Source: Candidatus Latescibacterota bacterium
GTDB taxonomy: Bacteria > Latescibacterota > UBA2968 > UBA8231
DNA length: 64,000 bases
Reading direction: 5' to 3'
NCBI GenBank assembly: GCA_965248355.1
Contig: OZ252098.1
Span: forward strand, 224,001-288,000
A program made the position numbers and the translations under genes. This document shows, one piece after another, positions 22,160-38,417 of this stretch (the stretch's first letter is position 1; each line of letters starts with the position of its first letter). The notes under the pieces are model-generated. The model saw nothing but the letters and a program-made list of their open reading frames with translations, had not been told where the DNA came from and did not search any database.

Positions 22160-23215
22160 TCAGCCCTTCCGTACCAACCCGCCGAATTCCCGCAGCAGCC
22201 GATCGATCTCGCCGTCCGTACCGACGGAGATGCGCAGGCAGTCGGAGAGCCTGGGGTCGCCGCCGAAGTAGCGGACCAGGATGCGGCGTTGCCTCAGCCC
22301 CGAGGCGACGGTCCCGGCATCGACCCCGGAGGGCATCCGGGCGAGGACGAAGTTGGCCTCGGAGTCCCAGACGCGGCAGCCGTGTTCGCGGAGCGCCCGG
22401 GTCAGGCGGGAGCGCGTGGCCACGACCCGGCGCGCGTTGCTCCGCATCCATTCGATGTCGTCGAGGGCGGCCTCGGCGGCCACCTGGCTCAGGGTGTTGA
22501 CGTTGTAGTGCTCCTTCACCTTGCCCATCCCCTCGGCCAGCTCGGGGGCGGCGATGCAGAAGCCGACGCGGAGTCCGGCCAGGGAGAAGGACTTCGACAG
22601 GGTGCGGGCGACGATCACGTTGGCATGGCGGCGGACGAGGTCGACGGCGCCGCGGCGGGCGAAGTCGACGTATGCCTCGTCGACGACCAGGATACCGGAC
22701 ACCTCGGCGGCCAGGGACTCGAGATCTTCGCCGGACACGACCGTTCCCGAGGGGGAGTTCGGGTTGGGAACCAGGGTCAGGGGGGCCCTGGCGGCGGCCA
22801 GGGCGGCCGGAAGGGAGAAGTCGTCGTCGAATTCGATGGACGGCCGGCGGGCGTCCTGCAATTCGACGAGCTTGGCGTAGTACGGGTAGGTCGGCGTGGC
22901 GAAGGCCACCTCGTCCCCGGCGCCGGCAAAGCAGCGCACGGCGATGTTGAGCAGCTCGTCGGAGCCGTTGCCGACGACGAAGTGCTCCTGGCCGAGGCCG
23001 AAGAGGGCCGCCAGCCGCCGTCGCACCCCGGTGGCGCCGGCATCGGGATAGCGTCGCAGGCCTCCGTCCACGGCGGCGCGCAGGCGCGCCAGGACCAGCG
23101 GCGAAGGCGGGCAGGGGTTCTCGTTGGTATTGAGCTTGAGGTACTCCCCGTCGCCGGGCTGCTCCCCGGGGAGGTAGCCGGCCATTCCGGCGATGTGGGG
23201 AAGAAAGGGGGTCAT
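22160..23215 (-). CDS. hisC: Histidinol-phosphate aminotransferase
   Basis: KLNTNENP; GNGSDE; PNSPSG; VVDEAYVDF; RTLSKSFSLAGLRVG (PLP lysine); LRISVG. Confidence 0.93.
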   Translation of the reverse strand: MTPFLPHIAGMAGYLPGEQPGDGEYLKLNTNENPCPPSPLVLARLRAAVDGGLRRYPDAGATGVRRRLAALFGLGQEHFVVGNGSDELLNIAVRCFAGAGDEVAFATPTYPYYAKLVELQDARRPSIEFDDDFSLPAALAAARAPLTLVPNPNSPSGTVVSGEDLESLAAEVSGILVVDEAYVDFARRGAVDLVRRHANVIVARTLSKSFSLAGLRVGFCIAAPELAEGMGKVKEHYNVNTLSQVAAEAALDDIEWMRSNARRVVATRSRLTRALREHGCRVWDSEANFVLARMPSGVDAGTVASGLRQRRILVRYFGGDPRLSDCLRISVGTDGEIDRLLREFGGLVRKG

Positions 23216-23236
23216 CGGGCTCCAGGGCGGGGTGGC

Positions 23237-23266
23237 AAGGTATCCGGAGCCCGCGCACGGTGTCAA
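23237..23266 (-). promoter_or_regulatory. Putative sigma70 promoter of hisC
   Basis: TTGACA-N18-TACCTT on the minus strand. Confidence 0.5.
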
Positions 23267-23297
23267 CGGCCCCGCCCGTGCCGGCCGGAGCGGGGGT

Positions 23298-25571
23298 TTA
23301 TTCGGACTCGGCGGAACCCGGGTCTTCCGCGCGAAGCCCAGGCGGCTGCACGGCGACCTCGTCCACGCGCTGCACTTCCGTCACGCCTTCCACACCGTGC
23401 AGCTTCCTCACCACCTTCTGCAACTGCCGGGAGTCGTGCACGTCGATCCAGAACGTCTCCTCCACCATGTGGGCCAGCGTCCGGGTCTCGCAGCTGACGA
23501 TGTTGGCGCCCGTGTCGGAGATGATGCGGGTCACGTCGGACAGGAAGTACTTGCGGTCCTGTCCGCGAACGAGCAGTTGCACGGTGAAGGCCTGCTCCTC
23601 CTCGAGGTCCCAGGCCACCGGCGTGAGACGCTCCGGATCCTCGGCCAGGTCGGCGAAGTTGGGGCAGTCCGTGCGATGCACCGACAGGCCCCGGCCCCGG
23701 GTGATGAGCCCGATGATCGGGTCTCCGGGAATCGGCGTGCAGCACTTCCCGAAGTGAATCATCATGTCGTGCATGCCCTGGATGCGGATGCCGCGCTGGT
23801 CGCGGATCAGGGGTTTCACGCGCCGCTTCGGCGGGTTCGGCACGAGCCGGTTGACGACCCGGCTCACGGACAGGTAGCCGGAGCCGATGCCGGCGTAGAG
23901 GTGCTCGGTGTCGGCGAGGTTCAGGTCGGCGGCCAGCTCCTCCAGGGCCTCGCTGCCGGCGCGGTGGCGGTAGCGTTTCAGCTCGTGCTCGAGGATCTCC
24001 TGGCCAAGGCGCACGCTCTGGGAGAACTGCTCCTCCTTCAGCCAGCGGCGGATCGACTGGCGGGCCTTGGCGGTCTTGACCATCTCCAGCCACGACGGAT
24101 TCGGCTTCTGATGGGGAGAGGAGATGATCTGCACGGTGGCGCCGCTGCTCAGGGCCGTGCTCAGGGGCACGATCTGCCCGTCCACCTTCGCGGTCAGGCA
24201 GTGGAGACCGATGTCGGTGTGGATGGCGAAGGCGAAGTCGATGGGCGTCGCCTCCTTGGGCAGCTGGTGCAGGTCGCCCTTGGGCGTGAAGACGAAGATC
24301 TCGTCCTGGAACAACTCGATCTTCAGGTTCTCCATGAATTCCATGGGGTCGGTGGCGTCCCTCTGCCAGTCGAGGACCTGGCGCAGCCAGTTCATCTGCT
24401 GGTCGAGGTCGCTGCTCTCGCCGGCCGCGCCCGACTTGTAGCGCCAGTGGGCGGCGATGCCGATCTCCGCCGTGTGGTGCATCTCCCAGGTGCGGATCTG
24501 CACCTCCACGGCCATGCCCTGGGGGCCGATGACGGTGGTGTGCAGCGACTGGTACATGTTCGTCTTCGGCGTGGCGATGTAGTCCTTGAAGCGGTCCGGG
24601 ATGGGGCGGTAGAGGGTGTGCACCAGGCCCAGGGTGTGGTAGCACTCGCGCACCGTGCCGACGATGATGCGCACCGCCGTGAGGTCGTAGATCTCCTCGA
24701 AGGGTTTCACCTGGCCCCGCATCTTGTTGTAGATGCTGAAGAAGTTCTTCGGACGTCCGGTGATCTCGGCCTCGATGCCGTTGTGCCCGAGTTCCTCGGC
24801 GAGAGGGGTCTTGAAGCCGTCGATGAGGCGCTCCCGCTCCTCGCGGCGCATGGCCACCTTCTCGCGGATCTCGCGGTAGAAGTCGGGCTCGAGATGCTTG
24901 AGGCTGCGGTCCTCCAGCTCCCAGCGGATCCGGGCCAGGCCCAGGCGGTGGGCCAGGGGCGCGTAGACTTCGAGGGTCTCGTGGGAGATGCGCTGGCGCT
25001 GGTCGGCGTCGAGGGCATCCAGGGTGCGCATGTTGTGCAGCCGGTCGGCGAACTTGACCAGGATGACCCGGATGTCCTCGACCATGGACAACAGCATCTT
25101 GCGGAAGGTCTCGGCCTGGCGGGCCTCGCGGCTCTCGAGCTGGAAGCGTTCGATCTTGGTGACCCCGTCGATGAGGGCGGAGATCTTGGCCCCGAAACCG
25201 GACTCGATCTGCTCCTGTGTGACCGAGGTGTCCTCGACCACGTCGTGGAGGAGGCCGGCGGCGACGGTCGTCGAGTCGAGGCGCAACTGGGCGAGGATGC
25301 GGGCCACCTCGACGCTGTGCTGGAGGAAGGCCTCCCCCGACTTCCGGATCTGGCCGGCGTGGGCCTCGAGGGCGAAGTGGTAGGCGCGGGCCACCAGCCC
25401 GAAGTCGGCGGACTCGTTGCACGACGCCACCTCGATCAGCAGCATTTGCAGCTGCAGGTGGTCCCGCGAGTCCTCCAGCAGCTCCTCGAGGTCAGAGGTC
25501 GCCGCGGGGTCCGGCATCCCCTCCGCGTTCCGGAGAGGCGCTTCTTCGAGGGCGGTCCGGGAGGTGTTCAA
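23298..25571 (-). CDS. rel: Bifunctional (p)ppGpp synthetase/hydrolase, long RSH
   Basis: Intact HD motif (LLHDVVED), ADRLHNMRTL, RFKD synthetase motif, YQSLHT, TGS (FTPKG..ATPIDFAF), CC zinc-finger domain and ACT domain. Confidence 0.95.
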   Translation of the reverse strand: MNTSRTALEEAPLRNAEGMPDPAATSDLEELLEDSRDHLQLQMLLIEVASCNESADFGLVARAYHFALEAHAGQIRKSGEAFLQHSVEVARILAQLRLDSTTVAAGLLHDVVEDTSVTQEQIESGFGAKISALIDGVTKIERFQLESREARQAETFRKMLLSMVEDIRVILVKFADRLHNMRTLDALDADQRQRISHETLEVYAPLAHRLGLARIRWELEDRSLKHLEPDFYREIREKVAMRREERERLIDGFKTPLAEELGHNGIEAEITGRPKNFFSIYNKMRGQVKPFEEIYDLTAVRIIVGTVRECYHTLGLVHTLYRPIPDRFKDYIATPKTNMYQSLHTTVIGPQGMAVEVQIRTWEMHHTAEIGIAAHWRYKSGAAGESSDLDQQMNWLRQVLDWQRDATDPMEFMENLKIELFQDEIFVFTPKGDLHQLPKEATPIDFAFAIHTDIGLHCLTAKVDGQIVPLSTALSSGATVQIISSPHQKPNPSWLEMVKTAKARQSIRRWLKEEQFSQSVRLGQEILEHELKRYRHRAGSEALEELAADLNLADTEHLYAGIGSGYLSVSRVVNRLVPNPPKRRVKPLIRDQRGIRIQGMHDMMIHFGKCCTPIPGDPIIGLITRGRGLSVHRTDCPNFADLAEDPERLTPVAWDLEEEQAFTVQLLVRGQDRKYFLSDVTRIISDTGANIVSCETRTLAHMVEETFWIDVHDSRQLQKVVRKLHGVEGVTEVQRVDEVAVQPPGLRAEDPGSAESE

Positions 25572-25687
25572 GGGGGGGGGCGCTCACAAGCCCGGCCCGG
25601 CCGATGCGGGCTCGAAATCCGGCCTCGGGAAAACGGTGGTTACTTCATGACTGACAACGAGATACGTCATTGCGAGGCGCTGCCGCC

Positions 25688-25716
25688 AGTGTAATGAGCC
25701 CCTGGAGAGGTGTCAA
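25688..25716 (-). promoter_or_regulatory. Near-consensus sigma70 promoter for rel
   Basis: TTGACA-N17-TACACT on the minus strand; overlaps the start of the divergent NusG-II gene. Confidence 0.7.
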
Positions 25717-26095
25717 GCCGCCGCCCTGGCCCGCGCCTCCCAGCCCGGGGGACATCCTCCTCGTGGCGGCCGTGCTGGCCGCGGCGGCCCTGCTCGTGGC
25801 CCGGCCCGAGGGGCGGACGCCCCGGTCGGCGAGCGTGCGGGTGGGCCACGAGGTGGTGCGCGTCCTGCCGCTGGACGAAGGGGCGCGGCTCGACGTGACC
25901 GGGCCGGTCGGTGTGAGCCAGCTCCTGGTCGAGGACGGCCGCATCCGCGTCCTCGCATCTCCTTGCGCGCAGCAGGTCTGCGTCCGCCGGGGATGGTTGC
26001 GTCAGGTGGGAGACGTGGCGGTCTGCGTTCCCAACCGGCTCGTGGTCCGGGTCGAAGGGGCGGGCGGGCCCTCCTTCGACGGGGTCAGCCGCTGA
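25694..26095 (+). CDS. NusG domain II-containing protein (DUF1312-like)
   Basis: TM helix followed by RVLASPCAQQVCVRRGW...VCVPNRLVV with three conserved Cys. Confidence 0.85.
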   Translation: MSPWRGVKPPPWPAPPSPGDILLVAAVLAAAALLVARPEGRTPRSASVRVGHEVVRVLPLDEGARLDVTGPVGVSQLLVEDGRIRVLASPCAQQVCVRRGWLRQVGDVAVCVPNRLVVRVEGAGGPSFDGVSR

Positions 26096-26625
26096 TGGTC
26101 TCCGCCGGACGGCGCGTGGCCTTTCTGGGGCTGATGTCGGCCGTGGCCCTGATCCTGTTCGTCTTCGAGGCGGCGGTGCCGCGGCCCCTGCCGTGGATGA
26201 AGCTGGGGCTCGGCAACGCCGCCGTGCTGGCGACGCTGCTGCTCTTCGGCGGCCCTCCGGCCATCGCCGTGGGCGCCGTGAAGGTCCTCGTGGGCGGGCT
26301 GCTGAGCGGCGGTCTGGCCGGGCCGGCTTCGGTCATCGGGGGAAGCGCCGCGCTCACGAGTCTGGCCACGATGATCGGTCTCCACCGGTTCCTCCCCCGA
26401 CTGTTCAGTCCCGTGGGTCTGAGCGTGGCGGGAGCGGTCGTCCACCAGGCCACGCAGTTGCTGGTGGCCGAGATCTACCTGGCTCAGGCGGGTCTGCTCC
26501 GGCTGCTGCCCCTCTTTCTCGTGGGCGGGGTCCTGTCCGGAGCGATGACGGGACTGGTCACCTACTTCGCGGTGAGGGCGCTCATGCGAGCCGGTCACGG
26601 GAGCGGTCCCGCGGCCCGGGGATGA
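26095..26625 (+). CDS. Gx transporter family protein (heptaprenyl-PP synthase component I-like)
   Basis: EAAVPRPLPWMKLGLGN; GLSVAGAVVHQATQL; TGATG coupling to the upstream gene. Confidence 0.85.
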   Translation: MVSAGRRVAFLGLMSAVALILFVFEAAVPRPLPWMKLGLGNAAVLATLLLFGGPPAIAVGAVKVLVGGLLSGGLAGPASVIGGSAALTSLATMIGLHRFLPRLFSPVGLSVAGAVVHQATQLLVAEIYLAQAGLLRLLPLFLVGGVLSGAMTGLVTYFAVRALMRAGHGSGPAARG

Positions 26626-26665: not shown

Positions 26666-29600
26666 ATGACCGGTATCCGCCTGTCCCCCCGACTGCGCGC
26701 AGGAACCTTCGGCCTGCTCCTCGCCCTCGGCGCGGCGCAAGCCGCGGCAGAGGTCGACTTCGAGGCCCTTCGCCAGGTGGCCCCCGAGGACCGCCTGCGG
26801 CAGACCGTAGGCTTTTTCTCCGGCCTCGGTTCCCGGGTCGCCGGCTATCCCGGCGCCGAGCGGGCGGCCCTGCACATCCACCGCCAGTTCCGGCAGATCG
26901 GCCTGCACGACATCACCTTCCACAAGTACGACGTCTCCGTGCCCATCGACCGGGGGGGGGCGCTGAGGATCGCGGGCGGGCCTTCGGTCCGGCTCCACGG
27001 ACTGTGGCCGAACCTGGTGCGCACGTCGACCCTTCCCGACGGCGGCATCCACGGTCGGCTGATCTACGGTGGACGGGGGGAGTTCGAGGAGCTCGACGGT
27101 CAGGACGTGGAGGGAGCCGTCGTCGTCCTCGACTTCAACTCCGGTGACAACTGGCTCAACAGCGCCTTCCTCGGCGCCGCCGCCGTGGTCTTCATCGAGC
27201 CGGACTCGACCGTCTATCTCGAGGGGGAGCGGAAGTTCCTCACCATGCCCCTCGATCTGCCCCGGTTCTGGGTGAGCGGGTCGGATGGCCGGCTGCTGCG
27301 GAAGGCCATCGGGCCGGACGGACCGCCGCCCTCGGCCCATCTCGAGTACCGCATGGACTGGGAGCGGCGCCCGGCGTGGAACGTCATGGGCTTCATCCCC
27401 GGGTACGACCCCCTGCTCCAGAAGGACGTGATCGTCCTGGAGTCCTACTACGATGCCATGTCGGTGGTTCCCGCCCTCGCGCCCGGCGCCGAGCAGGCGG
27501 CCGGCATCACGGGTCTGCTGGAGCTGGCCCGCTACTTCCGCCAGCATCCGCCGGCGCGCTCGGTCCTGTTCCTGGCCACCTCGGCTCACCACCTCGCCCT
27601 GCGCGGCATCGACGACTTCATCCAGCGCTATCTGCGTGACGAGAATCCCTTCATCGACCGCATGGTCCTGCGCCGGGTCATCGAAGGGGCCCTGGCCCGC
27701 GGGCTGATCGGCGAGGGAGAGGACGGCGTCACCTACCAGCTCGGCGACCAGGTCTTCACCGGCAAGGAAGCGCTGGTACGCTCCGTGGCCGACCTCGACA
27801 CCGTCCTCGTGCGCGCCGTGGCCCAGGCCTCGATGGAGGACGGGGAGGATCTGATCGTCCAGGACGACGGCGCCTGGCGGGTCCGGTACCAGGACGGAGG
27901 AAAGATCCGCCAGGCCTCCTTCGACACCTCCGAAGACCTGCTCCGCGAGCTCGGCGACGACGAGGACCTCCGGCTGGGATTCTACCGCGAGTGGGTGGAT
28001 CCGAAGGTCGATTCCCTCTCCGTGAACCTGTTCATCAGTCTCGACCTGTCGACGCAGACCGACGAGCTGGGCATCTGGAACAGCAACTCGAGCTTTTACT
28101 ACAAGCGCTACTTCGCGCCCTTCGGCAAGAACTTCATGAACTACTCGCGAAAGGTGAGCCGCGAGCTCGGTTACAGCTTCCGCGACGTTCTGGTCAACGG
28201 AATCAGTCCCGAAGGGGGGAAGAGCTGGGAGACCTTCGTCCCCGGCGAGATCTCCGTCAACAGCGAGCTCGTGCTGACCACGGGCACCCCGGCCCTCGCC
28301 TTCGTCACCGTGAACGACGCCCGGTTTCTCGTCGACACGCCCCTCGACCGGCCGCAGAACATCCGCTACGACAACCTCTCGCGGCAGATCCGCGCCCTGG
28401 CGGGGATGTTCCACATGGCCTTCGAGGATCCGGAGCTCTTCCCCGACTTCAAGATGCGTCTCAAGGACACGATGCGGTCCCTGAAGGCCAGGACCATGAT
28501 CTTCCCCAGGCGCAGCATCGTTCCCGACCTGCCGCGCACCGGCGCCATCGGCGTCGTGCGCAACGGCAAGAAGAAGTCGTACAAGGGGGTGCGCGGCGAG
28601 TACTTCGAGGTCGTCGACGACGACGGGTCTTTCTTCGTCAACCGCATCCGCGTCGAGCAGGTCCAGGTGGAGGGCTACCGCATGGATCCGGCCACCGGCC
28701 GGGTCAGCTACGCGCCGGATCGCGGCATCCAGGGCGCCCAGGCCTACCCGATGCTGATCAAGATGGACTGGCGCGACAAGGAGTGGATGGTCGTTCTGTT
28801 CCCCTGTGAGGCCTTCAACTTCTTCGACATCGTCGACCCGCGCTACCTCACCAAGCTCTCCGAGGTCACCGTCTTCGACGAGACCAACGCCTCTCCCGTC
28901 GAGTACGGATACACCATCGGGGAAGGACCCTCGGCCAGGGACGAACCGGTGGGCGTGCTCTTCGCCCGCCCGGGGGCCTTCGTGAAGATGGGCTTCGGCG
29001 CCGGCATCCTCGGGTTCCGCTCCCTGCTGCTGAACTCCAAGAACCCCGACGACAAGGAGGAGGCCCTGGGCGAGGGCTTCGCCATGGAGCCGGGGAGCTC
29101 CTTCGCGCGCACCTCCTACCAGTCGGCCAAGGACATGTGGACCCTCGACGAGGCCCGCATGCGCGAGCTGAGGGGGTTCGCCATCGAGAACCAGCGCCTG
29201 AACGATCTGCACGAGCGCGCCCGGGGGGAGCTGGACCTGGCCGAAGAGGCCCTGGGGCGCAAGGAGTGGAGCGAGTTCGTGCGCCACACGCGCTCGGCCA
29301 TCGGACTGGAGTCACGGGCCTACCCCGACGTCAAGTCGACCCAGAACGACGTCATCCAGGGCATCATCTTCTTCATGGCCCTCGTCCTGCCCTGCGCCTA
29401 CTTCGCCGAGCGCCTGCTGATCACGGCGGCCACCGTCCAGCGCCAGATCATGGGCTTCGCCGGCATCTTCCTCGTCATCTGGATCGTCCTCTCCTTCGTC
29501 CACCCGGCCTTCGAACTGTCCAACCCCTTCGTCATCCTGCTGGCCTTCGTCATCCTCGTGCTCGCGGTCCTCGTCATGTGGATCATCTCCGGCCGGTTCA

Positions 29601-31483
29601 ACGAGCAGATGAAGAAGCTGCGCACCGAGGTGGCCGTCATCCACGACACCGACGTGAGCCGCTCCAGCGCCTCCCTCACCGCCTTCCTCCTGGGCATCTC
29701 CAACATGAAGCGCCGCAAGCTGCGCACGGCGCTGACCTTCGTCACCCTGTTGCTGCTCACCTTCACGGTCCTGTCCTTCACCTCCATCCAGACGTCCCTG
29801 CGCTACAACCAGATCGAGCGCGACAACGAGGGGCTCTACGAGGGCCTGCTGATCCGCAGCAAGGCGTGGACGCCCATGGAGGAGTCGGTTCTCGAGTACG
29901 CCCACAGCAACTTCGGCGACCGGGCCGCCATCGCGCCGAGGAGCTGGTACGACAACAAGAAGAAGGCCCACATCAAGATCAAGTACGGCGATGACGCCCA
30001 TAACGCCCTCGGCGTTCTCGGCCTGACCCCGGTCGAGACCGAGGTGACCGGTCTCGACCAGGCCCTGCTGGCGGGCCGCTGGTTCCGACCCGGCGAGGGG
30101 CGGGTCTGCATTCTGCCCAACGACATGCTCGGCGCGGACAAGCTCGGCATCGACATGATCGACGTCGACCGCGGCACCGTCACGGTACGCGTCTTCGGCG
30201 AGCGGTTCACCGTCATCGGCATCATCAACTCCACGCGCATGAAGGAGCTGAAGGATCTCGACGACGAGACCATGACCCCCGCCGACTTCGCCGTCACCGG
30301 CGGCCAGGCGGTGCAGGAGATCGCCGAGGAGGAGCAGCGGGAGAAGCAGGGCCTCGAGGACGCGCAGGTGGTGATCAAGCCCTTCGTCCACCTCGAGCCG
30401 GCCAACACCCTGCTCATGCCGTACCACACGTTGCGCAACGTGGGCAGCGGCAACCCCCTGCAGTCCGTGGCCGTCCGCTTCGAGGAGGGAGTCGACGAGC
30501 GCGCCGAGATCGAGCAGTTCCTGTCGCGGCTGGCGGTGACCCTCTTCGCCGGCATCCAGGAGCCGGGCGACGACTACATCAAGGTGTCGATCTACAGCTC
30601 CCTGGGCATGACCTCCCTGTCGGGCGTGGCCAACCTCTTCGTGCCGATCCTCATCGCCGCCCTCATCGTGCTCAACACGATGATGGGCAGCGTGTACGAG
30701 CGCTTCCGGGAGATCGGCATCTATTCCTCGGTGGGCCTGGCGCCGGGACACATCGCCTGGTTGTTCATGGCCGAGTCCTGCGTCTACTCCGTCCTCGGGG
30801 TGGTGGCCGGCTATCTCGTGGGCCAGGTCACGGCCACCCTCCTGACGGAGTTCGGGGTGGTCGCGGGCTTCACCCTCAACTATTCGTCCCTGTCGGCCGT
30901 GCTCTCCTGCATCCTGGTGATGGCCGTGGTCATGCTCTCCACCATCTATCCGGCCCGCAGGGCCTCGCAGTTGGCGGTGCCCGACGTGACCCGCCGCTGG
31001 CGGCTGCCGCGCCCGGAGGGTGACGTCTGGCACTTCGAGTTCCCCTTCACCGTGGCCGGCCGCGACGTGGTCGGCCTGTCGGTCTTCCTCATCGGCTACT
31101 TCGACTCCTACTCCGAGGAGTCGATCGGCACCTTCTACACCGACGGCGCCAAGCTGGGACGCCTCGACTCCGAGCACGGCGAGGGCTACACCATCGACAT
31201 GAACATCTGGCTGGCGCCCTTCGACCTGGGGGTCAGCCAGCACGTGGTCATCCGCGCCCTGCCCGAGGCCGAGCACAACATCTACCAGGTTCAGCTCGAC
31301 ATCCGCCGCCTGAGCGGCGAGGACGCCTCGTGGCGGCGCGTCAACCAGCGTTTCATGAACGTCATCCGCAAGCAGTTCCTCATCTGGCGCACCGTCGACG
31401 CCGAGGCCAAGGAGGCCTACCGGCGCCAGGGACAGGAGCTGCTGGCCGGCGCCCGCGCCGACTCCGTCTCCGCCTCCGCCTGA
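26666..31483 (+). CDS. Fusion of a PA/M28-peptidase-like ectodomain with an FtsX/MacB-like permease, ~1600 aa
   Basis: Signal peptide; SRVAGYPG, NVMGFIPG..DVIVLESYYD, GITGLLELAR (M28 fold); NMKRRKLRTALT, VYERFREIGIYSSVG, YPARRAS (FtsX/MacB). Confidence 0.85.
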   Translation: MTGIRLSPRLRAGTFGLLLALGAAQAAAEVDFEALRQVAPEDRLRQTVGFFSGLGSRVAGYPGAERAALHIHRQFRQIGLHDITFHKYDVSVPIDRGGALRIAGGPSVRLHGLWPNLVRTSTLPDGGIHGRLIYGGRGEFEELDGQDVEGAVVVLDFNSGDNWLNSAFLGAAAVVFIEPDSTVYLEGERKFLTMPLDLPRFWVSGSDGRLLRKAIGPDGPPPSAHLEYRMDWERRPAWNVMGFIPGYDPLLQKDVIVLESYYDAMSVVPALAPGAEQAAGITGLLELARYFRQHPPARSVLFLATSAHHLALRGIDDFIQRYLRDENPFIDRMVLRRVIEGALARGLIGEGEDGVTYQLGDQVFTGKEALVRSVADLDTVLVRAVAQASMEDGEDLIVQDDGAWRVRYQDGGKIRQASFDTSEDLLRELGDDEDLRLGFYREWVDPKVDSLSVNLFISLDLSTQTDELGIWNSNSSFYYKRYFAPFGKNFMNYSRKVSRELGYSFRDVLVNGISPEGGKSWETFVPGEISVNSELVLTTGTPALAFVTVNDARFLVDTPLDRPQNIRYDNLSRQIRALAGMFHMAFEDPELFPDFKMRLKDTMRSLKARTMIFPRRSIVPDLPRTGAIGVVRNGKKKSYKGVRGEYFEVVDDDGSFFVNRIRVEQVQVEGYRMDPATGRVSYAPDRGIQGAQAYPMLIKMDWRDKEWMVVLFPCEAFNFFDIVDPRYLTKLSEVTVFDETNASPVEYGYTIGEGPSARDEPVGVLFARPGAFVKMGFGAGILGFRSLLLNSKNPDDKEEALGEGFAMEPGSSFARTSYQSAKDMWTLDEARMRELRGFAIENQRLNDLHERARGELDLAEEALGRKEWSEFVRHTRSAIGLESRAYPDVKSTQNDVIQGIIFFMALVLPCAYFAERLLITAATVQRQIMGFAGIFLVIWIVLSFVHPAFELSNPFVILLAFVILVLAVLVMWIISGRFNEQMKKLRTEVAVIHDTDVSRSSASLTAFLLGISNMKRRKLRTALTFVTLLLLTFTVLSFTSIQTSLRYNQIERDNEGLYEGLLIRSKAWTPMEESVLEYAHSNFGDRAAIAPRSWYDNKKKAHIKIKYGDDAHNALGVLGLTPVETEVTGLDQALLAGRWFRPGEGRVCILPNDMLGADKLGIDMIDVDRGTVTVRVFGERFTVIGIINSTRMKELKDLDDETMTPADFAVTGGQAVQEIAEEEQREKQGLEDAQVVIKPFVHLEPANTLLMPYHTLRNVGSGNPLQSVAVRFEEGVDERAEIEQFLSRLAVTLFAGIQEPGDDYIKVSIYSSLGMTSLSGVANLFVPILIAALIVLNTMMGSVYERFREIGIYSSVGLAPGHIAWLFMAESCVYSVLGVVAGYLVGQVTATLLTEFGVVAGFTLNYSSLSAVLSCILVMAVVMLSTIYPARRASQLAVPDVTRRWRLPRPEGDVWHFEFPFTVAGRDVVGLSVFLIGYFDSYSEESIGTFYTDGAKLGRLDSEHGEGYTIDMNIWLAPFDLGVSQHVVIRALPEAEHNIYQVQLDIRRLSGEDASWRRVNQRFMNVIRKQFLIWRTVDAEAKEAYRRQGQELLAGARADSVSASA

Positions 31484-31502
31484 CCCGCAACCTCGTCTGA
31501 GC

Positions 31503-33989
31503 ATGCTGCGACGCAAGAGCAACGCCAATCAGGAAATCGAGGAGTACCGCGACCTCCTCGAGACGCCGACAGAGTTCGAGGACGGCTTTACGCGCAAGGC
31601 GATTCTCGGGGTCTTCTTCGTCGCCTTCATCATGATCCCGGGGAACATGTACCTCAGCCTCATGGTGGGCGGTTCCCTCGGCGCCGCCGCGGAGTGGGTG
31701 ACGATCATCCTCTTCGCCGAGATCACCAAGCGGTCCTTCACCTCCCTGACGCGCCAGGAGGTCTACGTCCTCTACTACGTGGCGGCGGGGCTGATCGCCG
31801 CCGAGACGGGCGCTTTCGAGGGACTGCTGTGGAACCAGTACCTGCGCCAGTCGCCGCCGGCCCAGCAGTTCGGCATCGCCAACCTGATCCCCGACTGGTG
31901 GGCGCCGCCCCTGGAGTCGCCGGCCCTGCTGCAGCGGACTTTCCTGCACACGGACTGGATCATCCCTATCGGGCTCCTGCTGGCGCAGTTCGTGATCTCG
32001 CGGGTCTCGTGGTTCACCATGGCCTACGTGCTCTTCCGGCTCAACTCCGACTACGAGCGCCTGCCCTTCCCCTTCGCGCCCGTGGCCGCCCAGGGCGCCA
32101 CGGCCCTGGCCGAGACCACCCAGGGTGTGGAATCGTGGCGCTGGAGGGTGTTCTCCGCCGGCGCCATGATCGGACTGGTCTTCGGAACCCTGTACGTGGC
32201 GATCCCGGCGATCTCCGGCTCCCTGCTCACCAAGCCGATCCAGCTGATCCCCATCCCCTTCGTCGATTTCACCCAAGTCACGGGCAACTTCATTCCGGCC
32301 ACGCCCCTCGGGTTCACCGCCCACCTGGGGCCGATCTTCGCCGGCCTCGTCATGCCCTTCTGGGGGGTCATGGGCACCTTCCTCGGCGTCGTCGCCCACT
32401 CGGTGGCCAACCCGATCCTGTACGACCTCGGCTACCTCGAGATCTGGCAACCGGGCATGGGCGCCATCGAGACCTTCTTCGTCAACTCCGTCGACTTCTG
32501 GATGAGCTTCGGCATCGGCACGACCATCGCCATCGCCCTCATCGGCGTCTGGCAGGTCTTCCAGGGTGTGCGCACCGCCAGGGCCGCCAGGGCCGCCGGC
32601 GGGGTAGGCCGCACCTGGGCCGTGCCCGAAGGACGCGGCGATTTCCCCCTGTGGATCGCCCTGTCCCTGTACTCCCTGACCGCCGCCGGCCTGATCGCCA
32701 TCGCCTGGATCTTCCTGCCCGCCTTCCACCAGTTCATCTGGTTCTTCCTGTTCTTCGGCTTCGTGCTGACCCCGCTCCAGTCCTTCGTGAACGCCCGTCT
32801 CGTGGGCATGGTGGGGCAGACGATCGAAATCCCGTACGTGCGCGAGGCGACGATCATCTTCTCCGGGTACCAGGGCGTGGACATCTGGTTCATGCCCTTC
32901 CCCCTGGGCAACTACGGCGCCCAGACCCAGAAGTTCCGCGAGATCGAGCTCACGGGGACCAAGTTCACGAGCATCATCAAGGCCGAGATCGTGATGGTGC
33001 CCATCGTCCTGTTCGCCACCTTCCTGTACTCCTCCTACATCTGGAAGCTGGCCCCCATCCCCTCGGCCTCGTACCCCTACGCCCAGGTCATGTGGCGCCT
33101 GCGGGCTCTCCAGACCTGCATCTGGTTCACGGGCACCCTGAGGAGCGAGCTGACGGAGTCGCCGGAGCGCAACAGCGCCACCTGGCTGCCGTCGAACCTG
33201 GTGGAAGGGGAGTGGTGGTACTGGCGCGTGCGCGCCGCCGACCGCCAGTGGATCGAGTCGCAGGGAAAGCGCGGGGAAGCCGGTCCCTGGTCCCCGAAGC
33301 GGGCCTTCTACACCCACTTCCGCGAAGGCCTGCCCGAGCACGTGCTGTCCATGCCGCCCGGGGCCCTGGAGGAGACGGCGCCGGCCGCGCCCGGCGGCCT
33401 GGGGCTGCGCGCCGAGGGGCCGGCCACGGTGAGCCTGCCGAACGCCGCGGAGCTGGTCCGCGACGCCGTGGCCTCTCCGGACCGCCTGCCGGAGCTGATC
33501 GAGGGCGACAGGCCGGTGATCGGCATCGCCACCACGCCGCGCCCGGCCCTGCGGGCTTCCAGCGGCCAGGCCCTGCCCGCCGGCTGGGAGTACTACTTCG
33601 CCGTCGATACCGATCCGAACTTCACCAGCCCCTGGCTCCAGCGGTCCAGCGACGAGCCCTGGCTGTTCCGGGCGATCAAGAAAGAGATCATCATCGCCGG
33701 GACCGTCGTCGGCCTGGGCAGCTACATCTTCCTGTCCGCCTTCGGGTTGCCGATCCTCCTCGTCTTCGGGTACGTGCGTGCCCTGACGACGATCCCCCAC
33801 TGGATGGTCACCGAGGTCATCGGCGCCCTGCTGGCGCGCTACTACTTCTGGAACAAGTACGGACGGCAGCAGTGGCGCACCTATGCGCCGGTCCTCGCCG
33901 TCGGCTTCGCCTGCGGCATGGCGCTCATGGGCATGGCGTCCATCTCCATCGCCCTGATCCAGAAGTCGGTATCGGTCCTCATCTTCTAG
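31503..33989 (+). CDS. OPT-like (oligopeptide transporter superfamily) membrane protein with an inserted soluble domain
   Basis: Many TM helices; FTRKAILG, DYERLPFPFAPV and APIPSASYP resemble OPT/peptide-transporter motifs; a hydrophilic insert spans about 33140-33660. Confidence 0.75.
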   Translation: MLRRKSNANQEIEEYRDLLETPTEFEDGFTRKAILGVFFVAFIMIPGNMYLSLMVGGSLGAAAEWVTIILFAEITKRSFTSLTRQEVYVLYYVAAGLIAAETGAFEGLLWNQYLRQSPPAQQFGIANLIPDWWAPPLESPALLQRTFLHTDWIIPIGLLLAQFVISRVSWFTMAYVLFRLNSDYERLPFPFAPVAAQGATALAETTQGVESWRWRVFSAGAMIGLVFGTLYVAIPAISGSLLTKPIQLIPIPFVDFTQVTGNFIPATPLGFTAHLGPIFAGLVMPFWGVMGTFLGVVAHSVANPILYDLGYLEIWQPGMGAIETFFVNSVDFWMSFGIGTTIAIALIGVWQVFQGVRTARAARAAGGVGRTWAVPEGRGDFPLWIALSLYSLTAAGLIAIAWIFLPAFHQFIWFFLFFGFVLTPLQSFVNARLVGMVGQTIEIPYVREATIIFSGYQGVDIWFMPFPLGNYGAQTQKFREIELTGTKFTSIIKAEIVMVPIVLFATFLYSSYIWKLAPIPSASYPYAQVMWRLRALQTCIWFTGTLRSELTESPERNSATWLPSNLVEGEWWYWRVRAADRQWIESQGKRGEAGPWSPKRAFYTHFREGLPEHVLSMPPGALEETAPAAPGGLGLRAEGPATVSLPNAAELVRDAVASPDRLPELIEGDRPVIGIATTPRPALRASSGQALPAGWEYYFAVDTDPNFTSPWLQRSSDEPWLFRAIKKEIIIAGTVVGLGSYIFLSAFGLPILLVFGYVRALTTIPHWMVTEVIGALLARYYFWNKYGRQQWRTYAPVLAVGFACGMALMGMASISIALIQKSVSVLIF

Positions 33990-34010
33990 CCCCTCACAAG
34001 CCAGGAAGTC

Positions 34011-35135
34011 ATGTCCGAGCGTGACGGGCTGCCGGCGGGGGAGGGCAGGGCGCCGGAAGGGACCGCCTCCGGGGCCGGATCCTCCTTGGCCCCCGGGGGC
34101 CGCCGCTACGACTTCGGCTGGCAGGGGATCCGGCTGTGTGTCCCGCAGGAGTGGGAGCTGGGAAAGGTCGACGGAGACGCGGCCAGCGGCTACGCCCGGC
34201 TCGACGACACGCGCATGGTGCGGGCCGAGATCGAGTGGCGGGCGCCCCCCAAGCGCGGCATGCGCCGGCCCGTGGAGGACCTGGTGGGCCGCTATATCGA
34301 CCAGTTGCAGAAGAAGGCGGACAAGGCGGGCATGAAGCTGCGCGTCGAACGACGCGCGAAGTTCCTCAAGGACAAGCGCTGGCTCGAGGGCAGCGAGTAC
34401 GAGACCTTCGTCTGGCAGGCGGACTACCGCGCCTACAACCTGGCCCGGGCCTGCCCGGTCTGCGGCCGCATCGTCCTGCTGCGGGTGCTGGCGGGAAAGG
34501 ACGACGGCGGCGCCGAGATCGGCCTGGTGAACGAGATCCTGCCCACCCTGGAGGACCACCCGCGCGGCGAGCTGCAGTTCTGGAGCCTCTACGGCCTCAC
34601 CTTTCACGTCCCCCCGGACTTTCAGCTCACCGAGAAGGAGCTGAAGTCGGGCCACGTGAAGCTGATCTTCGAGAAGGACGGGGGCGCACAGACCCTGCGC
34701 GTGCATCGCCTGAGCATGGCCCACATGCTGTTGAAGGATACGGGCATCATGGACTGGTACCCCTCCTTCTTCCGCAAGGACCTGCGCGACGTCAATCACG
34801 AGGTCGCCGAGGCCACCATACGCGGCCACCAGGGCCTGCGAGTCAGCGGCCGGCCTCAGAGCCGCTGGCGCCAGATCCTGCGGCCCTTGCCGTTCGTCAA
34901 CCCGAGGCCGAGGCGCCACCTGCGGGGCGTCGCGTGGCACTGCCCCGACCTGAATCGCATCTGCATCGTCGAGCACCTGTTCAAGAAGGTCGATCAGGCC
35001 GGCGAGATCCTCGACGAGGTCATGGACGGATATGTTTGCCACGAAGAAGAAGCCGCAGCTGACCCGGGAGGCGATGATGGAGTCGCGCCCGGCGCGCAAC
35101 GAGTTGCTGGCGTGGGAGGACACGGAGGAGGGTGA
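34011..35135 (+). CDS. Hypothetical cytoplasmic protein with an internal two-fold repeat
   Basis: Coherent ORF with host-like codon usage; repeated W.G...VP..W/F.L motifs; the last ~30 codons overlap the next gene. Confidence 0.7.
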   Translation: MSERDGLPAGEGRAPEGTASGAGSSLAPGGRRYDFGWQGIRLCVPQEWELGKVDGDAASGYARLDDTRMVRAEIEWRAPPKRGMRRPVEDLVGRYIDQLQKKADKAGMKLRVERRAKFLKDKRWLEGSEYETFVWQADYRAYNLARACPVCGRIVLLRVLAGKDDGGAEIGLVNEILPTLEDHPRGELQFWSLYGLTFHVPPDFQLTEKELKSGHVKLIFEKDGGAQTLRVHRLSMAHMLLKDTGIMDWYPSFFRKDLRDVNHEVAEATIRGHQGLRVSGRPQSRWRQILRPLPFVNPRPRRHLRGVAWHCPDLNRICIVEHLFKKVDQAGEILDEVMDGYVCHEEEAAADPGGDDGVAPGAQRVAGVGGHGGG

Positions 35136-35475
35136 GGTCCGGATCACGGTGACCCGCCAGGAGACCTGGAAGACGCGCCTGCTGTCGAAGGTCTTCTACA
35201 TCCCCGAGAAGCGGACCATCACCCTCGACGAGGTCGGCGCCCAGGTGTGGCAGATGTGCGACGGCCGCACCTCCGTGGCGCAGATGATCGAAGGCCTCCG
35301 GGACCACTACAAGCTCGACCGCAAGGAGGCGGAGGTCTCCCTCCTGTCCTATCTGAAGACCCTCGGCCAGAAGCGGTTCGTCGGGTTCCTCGTGGAGGGC
35401 GCCGGCAGGACGCCCCCCGCGGAAGGGGGTGGCCGGAGAGGCAAGGATGCCAGCGGCAAGAAGTGGAAACGGTGA
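35032..35475 (+). CDS. PqqD-family / RiPP recognition element-like protein
   Basis: ITLDEVGAQVWQMCDGRTSVAQMIEGL..HY.L...EAEVSLLSYLKTLGQKRFV matches the PqqD winged-helix pattern. Confidence 0.85.
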   Translation: MFATKKKPQLTREAMMESRPARNELLAWEDTEEGEVRITVTRQETWKTRLLSKVFYIPEKRTITLDEVGAQVWQMCDGRTSVAQMIEGLRDHYKLDRKEAEVSLLSYLKTLGQKRFVGFLVEGAGRTPPAEGGGRRGKDASGKKWKR

Positions 35476-35598: not shown

Positions 35599-36204
35599 GT
35601 GAGAGCGGCGGCGGATCGATCCGGCCCCGGGACCGACAGGGCGGCGCGCTGGATCACCCATCTCCTCAGCCCGCCGGGCCTGGCCCTGGCCGTCTTCCTG
35701 TGGCTGCCCGCCGGTGAGGCCCCGCTGCCCTGGGTGTGGAGCAAGGCCCTGGCCATCCTCCTGTTCTCCATCGGCCCGGCCGCCCTCCTCGGCTCTCTGG
35801 CCAGGGGCCAGGGAGTGACCGACATCTACGATCCCCCCCGCCATCTGCGCAGGCGCTTCCTGATCGTGGGGACTCTCTGCTACGGCATCGGGTACGCGGT
35901 ACTGGAAGGGCTCCAGATGCCGCCGGACCAGCGCTGGGCGGCGGCCTCCTTCGCCGTCGGCGCCGCCGGGGTGGGGCTGGTGAACCGCTGGTGGAAGATC
36001 AGCATCCACAGCGCCGGCTCCGGCGGCGCCGCCGTGGTGGCGGCAACCGTCCTGGGAGCCCCTTGGTGGCCCCTCTGCGCGGCCCTTCCCCTGGCGGCGG
36101 CATGGGCGCGATGGCGTCGGGGTGCCCACTCCCTGGCGCAGCTGGTGGCCGGCGCCGGCTTGGGCGCCGCTGTCACCCTCCTGTTGCGAGCCTTCTTGAT
36201 GTGA
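35599..36204 (+). CDS. PAP2-like integral membrane protein
   Basis: Multiple TMs; WKISIHSAG and WARWRRGAHSLAQLVAG resemble PAP2 motifs. Confidence 0.65.
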   Translation: MRAAADRSGPGTDRAARWITHLLSPPGLALAVFLWLPAGEAPLPWVWSKALAILLFSIGPAALLGSLARGQGVTDIYDPPRHLRRRFLIVGTLCYGIGYAVLEGLQMPPDQRWAAASFAVGAAGVGLVNRWWKISIHSAGSGGAAVVAATVLGAPWWPLCAALPLAAAWARWRRGAHSLAQLVAGAGLGAAVTLLLRAFLM

Positions 36205-38417
36205 GCGGTCCGGACCTCTTCGAGGGAGCCGGGGGCGCCGGCCGGGAGGACTCGGCCGCCGGGGGGGGTGTGCGTCTGAAGGGGTTGATCGACCACATCA
36301 CCTTCCAGAACCCGGAGAACGGCTACACCATCGCCCGGCTGCGGCCGGAGGGGGAGGGGGAGCCGGTCACCGTCGTCGGCACCATGGCCGTCTCCGCCGG
36401 TGAGAGCGTGCAGCTGGAGGGCACCTGGGACCGGCATCCCCGCTTCGGCCGGCAGCTTCAGGTGGACTCGTGCATCCCCGACTACCCGGCCACCGTCGAG
36501 GGCATCGAGCGCTACCTCGGCTCGGGGCTGATCAAGGGGATCGGCCCGGTGATGGCCGAGCGCATCGTGGCCCGCTTCGGCGAGTCCTCCCTCGAGGTGA
36601 TCGACACCCGGCCGCGGCAGCTGCTGGAGATCGAGGGGCTCGGGGAGAAGCGCGTGCGGGCCATCGCCGAGGCCTGGAAGGAGCAGCGCCGCATCCGCGA
36701 CGTCATGGTCTTCCTCCAGTCCCACGGCGTCGGCACGGGCCACGCCGTGCGCATCTACCAGCAATACGGCGAGGAGGCCATCCACAGCGTCCGGCAGGAT
36801 CCCTACCGGCTGCAGCGCGACGTGCGCGGCATCGGCTTCCAGACGGCGGACCGGATCGCCGGCGATCTCGGCATCGCCCGCGACGCGCCGGAGCGCGTGC
36901 GCGCCGGCCTCCGCTACCTGCTGGAGGAGGCCGCCGACGAGGGCCACCTCTTTCTGCGCCAGGACGAGCTGGCCTCGGGGGCCGCCGAGCTGCTCGGCGT
37001 GGACCCCGGATCCTTCCCGGAGGCGCTCTCGGCCCTCCAGGAATCAGGTGAGGTCGTCGTGGAAGGGCAGGACTGCTATCCCGGGCGCCTGCACCGGGCC
37101 GAGCGCGGCGTGGCGCTGGCCCTGCAGCGGCTCATCGCCTCCCCGGGACCGCCCGTCGCCCGCCGGACAGGGGAGGGGGACGCCGCCGGGGACGCATCCC
37201 TGGGCAAGGACCAGCGGTGGGCCCTGGACCAGGTGGGCGCGGGGAAGGTCCTGGTCGTCACCGGCGGTCCCGGAACGGGCAAGACCACGATCACCCGCCA
37301 GATCGTGCAGCGGCTGGAGGCCGCCGGCCTGCGGGTGGCCCTGTGCTCGCCCACGGGACGGGCCGCCAAGCGCCTGACCGAGGCCACCAGCCGCGAGGCC
37401 CGCACCATCCACCGGCTCCTCGAGTTCGCGCCCCGGGAGGGCGGCTTCCGCCGCCACGAGAACCTGCCCCTCGAGGCGGAGGCCGTCATCGTCGACGAGA
37501 GCTCCATGATCGACATCTCCCTGATGAACGCCCTCCTGCGCGCCGTTCCCGACGCCGCCCGGCTGATCCTGGTGGGCGACGCCGACCAGTTGCCCTCGGT
37601 CGGGCCGGGCCACGTGCTCGGGGACATCATCGACTCCGGCGCCGTGCCCGTGGCGCGCCTGCGCCACATCTACCGCCAGGCCGTGGACAACCTCATCGTC
37701 ACCAACGCCCACCGCATCAACGGGGGCGAGTGGCCGCGGATCGACAACCGCTCGGACTCCGGCTTCTACTTCGTCGAGGAGGACGACCCCGCCCGCGTGG
37801 CCGAGCGCCTCGTGGACCTGGTGGCGCGCCGGCTGCCGCAAGGCCGGGACCTCGACCCCATGCGGCAGGTCCAGGTCCTGACCCCGATGTACCGCGGCGA
37901 GACCGGCGCGGTGCAGCTCAACCGCCGGCTCCAGGAGCGGCTGAACCCGGGACGCAGGTCCCATACCGTCGGCGACCGCGAGCTGCGCGAGGGGGACCGG
38001 GTGATGCAGGTGCGCAACAACTACGACAAGGGGGTATTCAACGGCGACCTGGGCCGCATCGGCCGCCTGGAGACGGGGGAGGATTCCTTCGCCGAGGTCG
38101 TCTTCGACGCCGGCGGCGTGCAGCGCTACGAGCTGTCGGAGCTCGACCAGCTGAACATGGCCTACGCCATCAGCATCCACCGGGCCCAGGGCTCGGAGTT
38201 CCCCGCCGTCGTCCTGCCCCTGACGACCCAGCACTACCCGATGCTGCAGCGCAATCTCCTCTACACCGCCGTCACCCGGGCCCGGGAGCTGTTCGTCCTC
38301 ATCGGCAGCCAGCGCGCCCTGAGGCGGGCCATCGAAAACGACCGCCCCGCCCGGCGGAACACCAACCTGGCCGCCCGGCTGCGCACGGCCCTGGCCGGCC
38401 CGGAGGCCCCCGGCTAG
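36201..38417 (+). CDS. recD2: ATP-dependent RecD2-like DNA helicase
   Basis: N-terminal ITFQNPENGYTI; HhH IKGIGP; Walker A GGPGTGKT; DESSM; GDADQLPSVG; AYAISIHRAQGSEF; LYTAVTRA. Confidence 0.95.
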   Translation: MSGPDLFEGAGGAGREDSAAGGGVRLKGLIDHITFQNPENGYTIARLRPEGEGEPVTVVGTMAVSAGESVQLEGTWDRHPRFGRQLQVDSCIPDYPATVEGIERYLGSGLIKGIGPVMAERIVARFGESSLEVIDTRPRQLLEIEGLGEKRVRAIAEAWKEQRRIRDVMVFLQSHGVGTGHAVRIYQQYGEEAIHSVRQDPYRLQRDVRGIGFQTADRIAGDLGIARDAPERVRAGLRYLLEEAADEGHLFLRQDELASGAAELLGVDPGSFPEALSALQESGEVVVEGQDCYPGRLHRAERGVALALQRLIASPGPPVARRTGEGDAAGDASLGKDQRWALDQVGAGKVLVVTGGPGTGKTTITRQIVQRLEAAGLRVALCSPTGRAAKRLTEATSREARTIHRLLEFAPREGGFRRHENLPLEAEAVIVDESSMIDISLMNALLRAVPDAARLILVGDADQLPSVGPGHVLGDIIDSGAVPVARLRHIYRQAVDNLIVTNAHRINGGEWPRIDNRSDSGFYFVEEDDPARVAERLVDLVARRLPQGRDLDPMRQVQVLTPMYRGETGAVQLNRRLQERLNPGRRSHTVGDRELREGDRVMQVRNNYDKGVFNGDLGRIGRLETGEDSFAEVVFDAGGVQRYELSELDQLNMAYAISIHRAQGSEFPAVVLPLTTQHYPMLQRNLLYTAVTRARELFVLIGSQRALRRAIENDRPARRNTNLAARLRTALAGPEAPG

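Follow-up and report, generated by a model that had tools for sequence, protein, structure and literature searches.

Within the 64,000-nucleotide window analysed here, a stretch of the genome of a Candidatus Latescibacterota bacterium, four genes encode a giant membrane protein of 1618 amino acids (aa; the giant), a permease of 828 aa, a protein of 374 aa (p374) and a small PqqD-like protein. By comparing the locus across the phylum we show that these four genes make up the first part of a conserved system of six genes, and that the last two genes, encoding a short FtsX protein (sFtsX) and an ATP-binding cassette (ABC) ATPase, moved 2.28 Mb away in this genome. The sequence-only reading of the window had taken the locus for an ATPase-less system energised by a subunit resembling oligopeptide transporters (OPT). 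That reading fails, because the sFtsX-ATPase pair (the motor pair) is contiguous with the four genes in five genomes, is linked to pqqD in four more and is co-distributed with the set. A dedicated ATPase consistently co-occurs, and the system is probably not an ATP-independent device. We take it to be an undescribed system, probably of the type VII ABC kind, with unprecedented partners; none of the titles and abstract openings returned by our literature search described the six-gene system.

The window corresponds to G000:C1:224001-288000, where G000 denotes the genome holding it, a single contig of 5.50 Mb. Families of the phylum are labelled f1-f14 and loci carry L-numbers. The G+C content of the window is approx. 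70%, and the homologues of its proteins were labelled Latescibacterota, some of them Gemmatimonadetes.

The motor pair and the six-gene operons

The surroundings of the motor pair were examined in 20 genomes, and the ATPase gene directly followed sFtsX in all 20. Five of them (G008 of f8, G024 of f11, and G026, G029 and G030 of f12) carried the genes for the giant, the permease, p374, PqqD, sFtsX and the ATPase in this order, on one strand and tightly packed. The block pqqD-sFtsX-ATPase was contiguous in four more (G031 of f13; G033, G035 and G036 of f14), and in the remaining 11 genomes the motor pair was located apart from the other genes. In f1 the set is split as four genes plus two. The split in f2, f3, f4 and f9 is into giant-permease, p374-pqqD (5 of 5 loci) and sFtsX-ATPase, and in f13 and f14 p374 stands alone. 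Breakpoints were thus found in different lineages at each of the three junctions that separate the giant-permease pair, p374, pqqD and the motor pair, with the genes kept in the genome.

The motor pair of G000, lying 2.28 Mb from the four-gene operon, is present as a single intact copy. sFtsX has 234 aa, is encoded once and comprises only about 50 residues between its first and second transmembrane (TM) segments, with no periplasmic domain; its FtsX domain was recognised with E 7e-19 and its best match in the PDB was MacB (5gko, E 1.4e-16). The ATPase, 265 aa and encoded directly after sFtsX, has intact Walker A, signature, Walker B and H-loop motifs. Among the NCBIfam models LolD scored best (226 bits), followed by MacB, YbbA, DevA and FtsE, all below their cut-offs. 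This MacB/LolD-type ATPase was assigned to the giant by genetic linkage only. The only FtsX genes of G000 that lack an ABC ATPase within 10 kb are four giants and one further gene. The latter, an FtsX domain at G000:C1:3185733-3186089 (minus strand), is located in an open frame of 1061 aa.

At its position in G000 (L135, 2,534,485-2,542,552) a GT2 glycosyltransferase of 733 aa and an RmlD-like reductase are encoded upstream of the motor pair, which adjoins YdjM and GNAT genes. The RmlD-like gene remains near the pair in f1-f4.

For the phyletic counts we used 168 genomes of the phylum, 155 outside f10 and 13 in f10. The permease was detected in 154 of the 168 genomes and p374 in 149, with one match per genome, and neither was found in any of the 13 genomes of f10. 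An sFtsX orthologue (E<=1e-46) was present in 147 of the 155 genomes outside f10, the eight exceptions being 60-89% complete. It was missing from all 13 genomes of f10, where the best E value, 1.3e-16, was at the level of a paralogue. The motor pair, the permease and p374 share one phyletic profile, near-universal in the phylum and missing from f10.

Gene order was followed in 80 related loci from public genomes; the search of genome contigs returned in-phylum loci only. The giant gene was directly upstream of the permease gene in 68 of the 71 loci with room. The sequence-only reading had suggested a check of whether the four genes co-occur across phyla without an ATPase. Within this phylum p374 and pqqD followed the permease in 34 of the 76 loci with room, the full four-gene synteny being confined to f1 and a few others, and elsewhere the genes were retained in split form. 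All eight f1 loci examined kept the neighbourhood RelA / PF07456 - (DUF6785) - giant - permease - p374 - pqqD - RecD2.

An ABC ATPase of any kind was encoded within 10 kb in 14 of the 80 loci. In f3 and f4 an ATPase gene is located 0.9 kb upstream of the DUF6785-giant-permease module (L041, L046, L079-81, L083, L084, L094, L098). We rejected it as a local motor, because a tRNA-Phe gene on the opposite strand intervenes in the four loci scanned (L041, L046, L079 and L083) and because this paralogous MacB-type ATPase is only 56-60% identical to that of G000, with an 80% orthologue standing beside sFtsX elsewhere in the same genome in the two genomes checked (G054, G088). The ATPase near L119 belongs to a MalK-type sugar importer according to Pfam, and L049 is the same genomic region as L119; the ATPase matches of L122 look similar to those of L119. 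In L067, L070 and L104 there are weak ATPase matches at a distance of 9 kb downstream, which we considered unrelated.

A related cassette outside the phylum

A profile of p374 matched 1729 cluster representatives at E<=1e-3 and 929 at 1e-10. One p374-related cluster, among 20 looked up, was labelled Armatimonadetes, and Atlas neighbours of p374 were labelled Armatimonadota and Poribacteria; these labels serve as leads only. Using a six-sequence alignment we found a distant p374 subgroup, 27-33% identical to the p374 of the window, on 18 metagenome contigs. A metagenome search with a single distant p374 relative gave no match. PqqD followed p374 in 15 of the 18 contigs, two others ended at or within approx. 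80 nt after p374, and L190 was an unclear case, with 330 nt downstream of p374 and no PqqD match in it. The next gene in 13 contigs encoded an FtsX protein with a periplasmic insert (470-483 aa), and the ATPase, 69-75% identical to that of G000, came next in nine, which is every contig reaching far enough. In L184 the cassette is preceded by a STAS/zinc-ribbon protein confirmed by Pfam, and an ORF (open reading frame) of the same size occupies the same place in L176, L177 and L185. No giant or OPT-fold gene was detected on the contigs with the distant cassette. Since the order p374-PqqD-FtsX-ATPase is kept in this subgroup, we regard it as an older cassette. On this view the FtsX protein of the cassette has lost its periplasmic domain in Latescibacterota, and a giant FtsX protein and an OPT-fold partner have joined there.

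Properties of the four proteins encoded in the window

What the sequence-only reading had said about the individual genes largely agreed with our data. ORFs, spacing and G+C content at third codon positions (GC3) confirmed four co-directional, tightly spaced genes. The description of the giant as an M28-like ectodomain fused to an FtsX/MacB module was matched by Pfam hits to FtsX, to part of M28 and, below the cut-off, to MacB_PCD, and the stand-alone PqqD protein, described as of the RRE type (RRE, recognition element of ribosomally synthesised and post-translationally modified peptides, RiPPs), by PF05402. The duplicated domains of the cytoplasmic protein were seen again in the predicted structure of p374. 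The likeness of the permease to OPT proteins was borne out by its fold only (Foldseek, VIA). The lack of an ATPase, a radical SAM enzyme and a precursor gene held for the vicinity of the operon, and the idea of a so far uncharacterised membrane machine, built from several proteins and with domains on either side of the membrane, was supported.

The giant consists of, in order, a signal or anchor segment, a PA/M28-like ectodomain, about 550 aa of further ectodomain (approx. 860 residues of ectodomain in total), three TM helices, an FtsX/MacB module and a C-terminal cytoplasmic domain of about 170 aa. Position 26666, used as its start in the sequence-only reading, is the first ATG, at codon 14, from which 1605 aa are encoded. 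A hydropathy scan placed the three extra TM helices at aa 909-927, 944-962 and 969-987 and the TM segments of the FtsX set at 1036-1054, 1331-1349, 1376-1407 and 1422-1440. The FtsX domain (PF02687) was found at aa 1338-1448 (Pfam E 2.2e-15). The MacB_PCD match at aa 1044-1222 reached 20.4 bits and stayed below its cut-off of 27, but TM1 and TM2 are separated by a loop of 290 aa. In a sequence search of the PDB the C-terminal half matched MacB (5lil, E 1.7e-11), YtrF, LolC and LolF. The stretch ahead of TM1 aligned weakly with the helix motif that precedes TM1 in MacB, and TM2-4 are kept.

The N-terminal part of the giant aligned with the PA/M28 aminopeptidase YwaD and the Aeromonas-type leucyl aminopeptidase (AAP) at E of about 1e-3, and more weakly with Nicalin (E 0.02). 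Its Peptidase_M28 match at aa 252-333 scored 27.3 bits against a cut-off of 21.3 and covers profile positions 1-78 of 193 only. The site aligned with the M28 metal site was compared among 89 giants: the Tyr is conserved in 85, the Asp in 89, the Glu in 88 and the first His in 89, and the last position is His in 64 and Phe in 21. We take the Tyr to stand in the position of the first His ligand, the Glu in that of the bridging Asp and the His-His/Phe in that of the Glu-Glu pair. At these positions the canonical M28 residues, the catalytic Glu-Glu pair among them, are replaced, and the two distal ligands were not alignable. As the site is non-canonical yet strongly constrained, we concluded that it is remodelled rather than decayed. 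G000 encodes four giant-permease pairs, with four giant paralogues, and single copies of p374, PqqD and the PF07456 gene described below.

Neither the permease nor p374 had a match in Pfam or NCBIfam. The AF2 model of the permease, computed from an alignment of 54 homologues, reached a pLDDT of 84.3 and a pTM of 0.82. A Foldseek search of the PDB with this model gave only two matches at E<=1e-3, both to the barley Yellow Stripe 1 transporter HvYS1 (7wst and 7wsr; E 2.7e-8), with a TM-score of 0.63 normalised to the target. The VIA comparison with HvYS1 gave Z 19.8 and a root-mean-square deviation of 4.8 over 548 of 601 residues, the next membrane-domain match having Z below 5. On this predicted model the permease has the OPT fold, though it lies outside the Pfam family PF03169. 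A six-frame search with PF03169 gave 21.8 bits, below the cut-off of 25.8 and for the C-terminus only, and a Pfam scan of 13 members of the permease family returned no OPT match. The permease alignment, used as a profile against the PDB, gave no match. Compared by hhalign with eight genuine OPT proteins from this phylum, the permease gave a probability of 7%; the values were 2.7% for the permease with DUF6785 and 3.4% for DUF6785 with OPT, none of them significant. The Ig-like, beta-rich insert of the permease (Table 1) is missing from shorter paralogues, which align to aa 1-549 and 723-828 only.

Polytopic proteins of about 650 aa with DUF6785 and DUF6784 (Pfam) were found at approx. 26 loci in G000, often flanking giant-permease modules. 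Our literature search found no paper for DUF6785, DUF6784, PF20581 or PF20580. A variant module was seen in a sister genome (L112:5202-14787, and L115), in the order FtsX (395 aa, MacB_PCD) - ABC ATPase - FG-GAP/ASPIC/TPR protein (903 aa) - permease paralogue - DUF6785. A protein of the same kind as its FG-GAP/ASPIC member, with FG-GAP_3 and UnbV_ASPIC domains, is encoded in the window at 16159-18120 (minus strand).

For p374 an AF2 model with a pLDDT of 82.4 was obtained from 36 aligned homologues. The core, aa 32-340, was predicted to consist of two tandem PsbP/Mog1/DcrB-like domains, an alpha-beta sandwich present twice. Foldseek gave 22 matches at E<=1e-3, with PsbP (1v2b, 9.1e-6) at the top and the two-domain TplEi (5h7y, 1.2e-5), Tli4, DcrB and SciW among the others. 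No TM segment or signal peptide was detected in a scan of p374, and its alignment contained no invariant catalytic-looking residues.

The PqqD-like protein matched PF05402 at aa 59-117 with 50.1 bits against a cut-off of 23.4, and every NCBIfam PqqD model stayed below its own cut-off. It is conserved from residue 1 across 24 orthologues. The overlap of 104 nt between p374 and pqqD (35032-35135) is genus-specific, as most p374 orthologues end about 35 codons earlier (330-343 aa). A complex prediction for p374 (aa 30-350) with PqqD (aa 1-125) gave a score of 0.01, which is uninformative either way.

Gene layout and surroundings of the operon

All four ORFs are on the plus strand, separated by gaps of 19 nt and 21 nt and then by the 104-nt overlap, and their GC3 of 0.89-0.95 is of the coding type for G000 (Table 1). 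The PF07456 gene stops 1 nt ahead of the giant ORF, and its true start is probably an ATG near 26095. It is conserved upstream of the giant in f1 only, and a tblastn search of the contiguous six-gene operons of f8, f11 and f12 gave no match at E<=1e-4; it is possibly co-transcribed with the giant operon. The hairpin past pqqD is weak evidence for the operon end, with five terminator-like sites found in the region against 3.4 expected. The RecD2 gene starts 260 nt after pqqD and neighbours the operon in f1 only. A plus-strand ORF at 23193-25694 (833 aa, no family matches) was discarded as a shadow ORF lying opposite the minus-strand RelA/SpoT gene. No PF00005 (ABC ATPase) match occurred within 14.5 kb of the operon, the Pfam scan of the neighbouring genes revealed no radical SAM enzyme, and no conserved small ORF was seen after pqqD or in the gaps around sFtsX and the ATPase.

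Metatranscriptome contigs 95-99% identical to the window were found in four runs of one study. In all four runs they span the junctions of giant with permease and of permease with p374; the overlap of p374 and pqqD is spanned in three runs. Such contigs cannot demonstrate one transcript, and DNA carry-over is possible. The PF07456 region (approx. 25754-26461) was thinly covered, from which no conclusion was taken.

Table 1. Coordinates of the features discussed. Positions refer to the window unless a genome or locus is named.
Feature	Position	Strand	Evidence or remark
RelA/SpoT, divergent upstream neighbour, left operon boundary	23298..25571	-	Pfam HD_4, RelA_SpoT, TGS, ACT
PF07456 (Hpre_diP_synt_I family) small membrane protein	25963..26625	+	Pfam E 3.2e-31
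Giant membrane protein, 1618 aa	26627..31483	+	TTG start; Pfam, PDB sequence matches, TM scan
M28-like core stretch of giant, aa 252-341, remodelled metal site Y274, D276, E289, H321, H322	27380..27649	+	alignment to 2anp, 6hc6
FtsX/MacB-type permease module of giant, aa 1036-1450 (TM1, putative periplasmic core domain, TM2-4)	29732..30976	+	Pfam, PDB matches, TM scan
Permease, 828 aa, predicted OPT/Yellow-Stripe fold	31503..33989	+	AF2 model, Foldseek, VIA
Ig-like beta-rich insert of permease, aa 546-717	33138..33653	+	DSSP strands in model; weak Ig-like matches, Z 4-5.4
p374, predicted tandem PsbP/Mog1/DcrB-like domains	34011..35135	+	AF2 model, Foldseek, alignment
PqqD-like (RRE-type) small cytoplasmic protein, 147 aa	35032..35475	+	PF05402, E 3.4e-13
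Terminator-like hairpin, 15 nt past pqqD stop codon	35490..35507	+	weak operon-end evidence
RecD2-type helicase, downstream neighbour, right boundary, outside the system	35736..38417	+	Pfam
sFtsX and ABC ATPase pair	G000 2,536,083-2,537,601 (ATPase 2,536,083-2,536,880)		single intact copy
Proteins with DUF6785 and DUF6784, examples	G000 1013714-1015420, 1016094-1017797, 5122694-5124586; L134:10694-12589		
tRNA-Phe gene, conserved, between ATPase and module	L041:2846-2921, L046:3106-3181, L079:2665-2740, L083:2900-2975	opposite to module	
Distant cassette, STAS/zinc-ribbon protein - p374 - PqqD - FtsX - ATPase	L184:9453-13731 (also L176, L177, L185)		

Discussion

We propose that the six proteins form a type VII ABC mechanotransducer that is driven by ATP, contains an asymmetric pair of FtsX proteins and is coupled to an OPT-fold permease, with two accessory proteins in the cytoplasm, and we give this model a probability of about 0.55. 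Its parts are not equally firm. That the system has six parts and depends on the ATPase is very likely, a heterodimer of the giant and sFtsX is the arrangement we favour by a little, and uptake rather than export as its direction is put forward tentatively, at slightly less than even odds. Two copies of the ATPase would sit under the permease pair of giant and sFtsX, like LolC/LolE on LolD, and cytoplasmic ATP binding and hydrolysis would move the putative periplasmic core domain of the giant together with its large peptidase-like head. The asymmetric pair is suggested because sFtsX, lacking a periplasmic domain, offers no part that it could move by itself, and because the giants are, bar one further gene, the only FtsX genes of G000 without a nearby ATPase. 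The most speculative steps concern the cargo: the remodelled pocket of the head, in place of the di-zinc site, may bind a peptide-like substrate on the outside and pass it on to the neighbouring OPT-fold permease, which would take it up, and p374 and PqqD, which travel with the motor genes in other lineages, may bind cargo or gate the ATPase from the cytoplasm.

Several points weigh against this model. The phyletic agreement amounts to a single evolutionary event, because f10 is one clade. The relation of the permease to OPT proteins is one of predicted fold only, the Pfam, hhalign and PDB profile comparisons not being significant. The giant could act as a homodimer or with another ATPase, and the presence of four giant-permease pairs against one motor set in G000 leaves the stoichiometry unexplained. 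PqqD/RRE proteins usually act on precursor peptides in the cytoplasm, a role more in line with export or maturation than with uptake. Finally, as neither a giant nor an OPT-fold gene accompanies the distant cassette on its contigs, the motor set is able to function in their absence.

In a machine for export or maturation, PqqD would bind a cytoplasmic peptide, RiPP-like or other, the OPT-fold protein or the FtsX pair would move the peptide out, and the ATP-driven peptidase-like head would, as the last step, process it or pass it on in the periplasm, in the way that MacB drives out substrates from the periplasm. The family membership of PqqD, its staying with the FtsX-ATPase motor in f13, f14 and the distant cassette, and the outward action of type VII ABC systems in general would all be accounted for. 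We nevertheless consider such a machine unlikely, as the contiguous operons examined contained neither a radical SAM enzyme or other maturase nor a small ORF resembling a precursor, the OPT-fold proteins characterised so far are importers, and the canonical M28 catalytic residues are replaced in the giant. In addition, p374 occurs once per genome, as does sFtsX in G000, and nearly the whole phylum has the set, so that it looks like a housekeeping system and not like a secondary-metabolite cluster. The conserved but non-canonical M28 site could also belong to a regulator of envelope remodelling of the FtsEX type, in which the motor would move a pseudo-peptidase head and thereby switch a periplasmic hydrolase or another partner on or off, the OPT-fold permease only recycling the released fragments. 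The weak matches to Nicalin, a non-catalytic M28-like subunit of a membrane complex, point in the same direction, and FtsEX-EnvC and YbbAP-TesA offer precedents, being reported as type VII ABC systems that control hydrolases (PMC12646458, PMC10214136). The operons, though, contain no conserved gene for a hydrolase or an EnvC-like protein, giant and permease are very closely coupled (68 of 71 loci), and the several paralogous pairs found in a genome point to a number of substrates instead of one regulatory switch; we regard a regulator of this type as improbable.

Least probable of all, in our judgement, is an ATP-free operation of the f1 operon, with the four genes driven by the OPT-like protein as a secondary carrier and the distant sFtsX-ATPase pair being unrelated. 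None of the four giant-permease pairs of G000 has an ABC ATPase within 10 kb and none of the 80 related loci contained an sFtsX orthologue, as this explanation would have it. It does not account for the six contiguous genes in five genomes of three families, the linkage of PqqD to the motor in four more, the common presence and absence across the 168 genomes or the p374-PqqD-FtsX-ATPase cassette of a distant lineage, and the giant has retained a MacB-type permease core with the motif ahead of TM1.

Among known systems, LolCDE likewise has a MacB/LolD-type ATPase gene encoded with FtsX-fold permeases and two unlike FtsX proteins in its gene set. The giant and sFtsX matched LolC, LolE and LolF in the PDB sequence search, and the NCBIfam Lol models stayed far below their cut-offs. 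Here, in contrast, sFtsX is without a periplasmic domain and the heterodimer is a proposed one; the giant has, besides a PA/M28-like ectodomain of 900 aa, a cytoplasmic domain at its C terminus and three additional TM helices; and an OPT-fold permease, a tandem PsbP-like protein and PqqD are added, with the genes dispersed in most lineages. MacB of MacAB-TolC, which works by mechanotransmission, is the best solved relative of both the permease module of the giant (5lil) and sFtsX (5gko). It differs in that the present ATPase is unfused and the periplasmic head is another one, and the loci showed neither a MacA-like adaptor nor a TolC gene. YbbAP-TesA and FtsEX-EnvC are reported to join a motor of the type VII ABC class to a periplasmic element resembling a hydrolase, a combination also proposed here; in the present system the hydrolase-like domain is part of the permease protein itself and no longer has the canonical catalytic residues, and a transporter-fold partner and cytoplasmic accessory proteins are present.

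The accessory parts have relatives of their own. The permease shares its predicted fold with the OPT/Yellow Stripe-like (YSL) transporters (HvYS1, 7wst; PF03169) at 12% identity, and differs from them by the Ig-like insert and by always being encoded beside a giant FtsX protein. p374 shares the fold of each half, and the tandem arrangement, with PsbP/Mog1/DcrB-fold proteins including the immunity proteins TplEi and Tli4 of type VI secretion systems, whereas identity is 8-13%, there is no sequence-family match, and p374 is cytoplasmic and stands in another gene context. With the PqqD/RRE peptide chaperones of RiPP pathways the PqqD-like protein has the PF05402 domain in common; in this case neither precursor nor maturase genes were present in the window or the contiguous operons, and the protein is linked instead to an ABC motor and a PsbP-like protein. 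Our literature search found no paper combining PqqD with FtsX.

The unequal copy numbers in G000 allow an extension of the mechanotransducer model that we consider possible but doubtful: one single-copy motor and cytoplasmic set (sFtsX, ATPase, p374 and PqqD) may serve several interchangeable giant/OPT-fold pairs, in G000 the four pairs and perhaps also some of the approx. 26 DUF6785 permeases. If true, the architecture would be a hybrid one, permeases with the fold of secondary transporters being powered or gated by a type VII ABC mechanotransducer; the titles and abstract openings returned by our literature search included no paper describing such an arrangement.

If the mechanotransducer model is true, a near-universal housekeeping system of the Latescibacterota joins a MacB/Lol-type mechanotransducer and an OPT-fold permease, which are not known to cooperate. 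It would also give a PqqD/RRE protein a job outside RiPP pathways and the PsbP-like fold a job in the cytoplasm. For the FtsX family, the locus illustrates that an 'orphan' permease can have its motor encoded megabases away, and that comparing how an operon breaks up among lineages can recover the missing parts.

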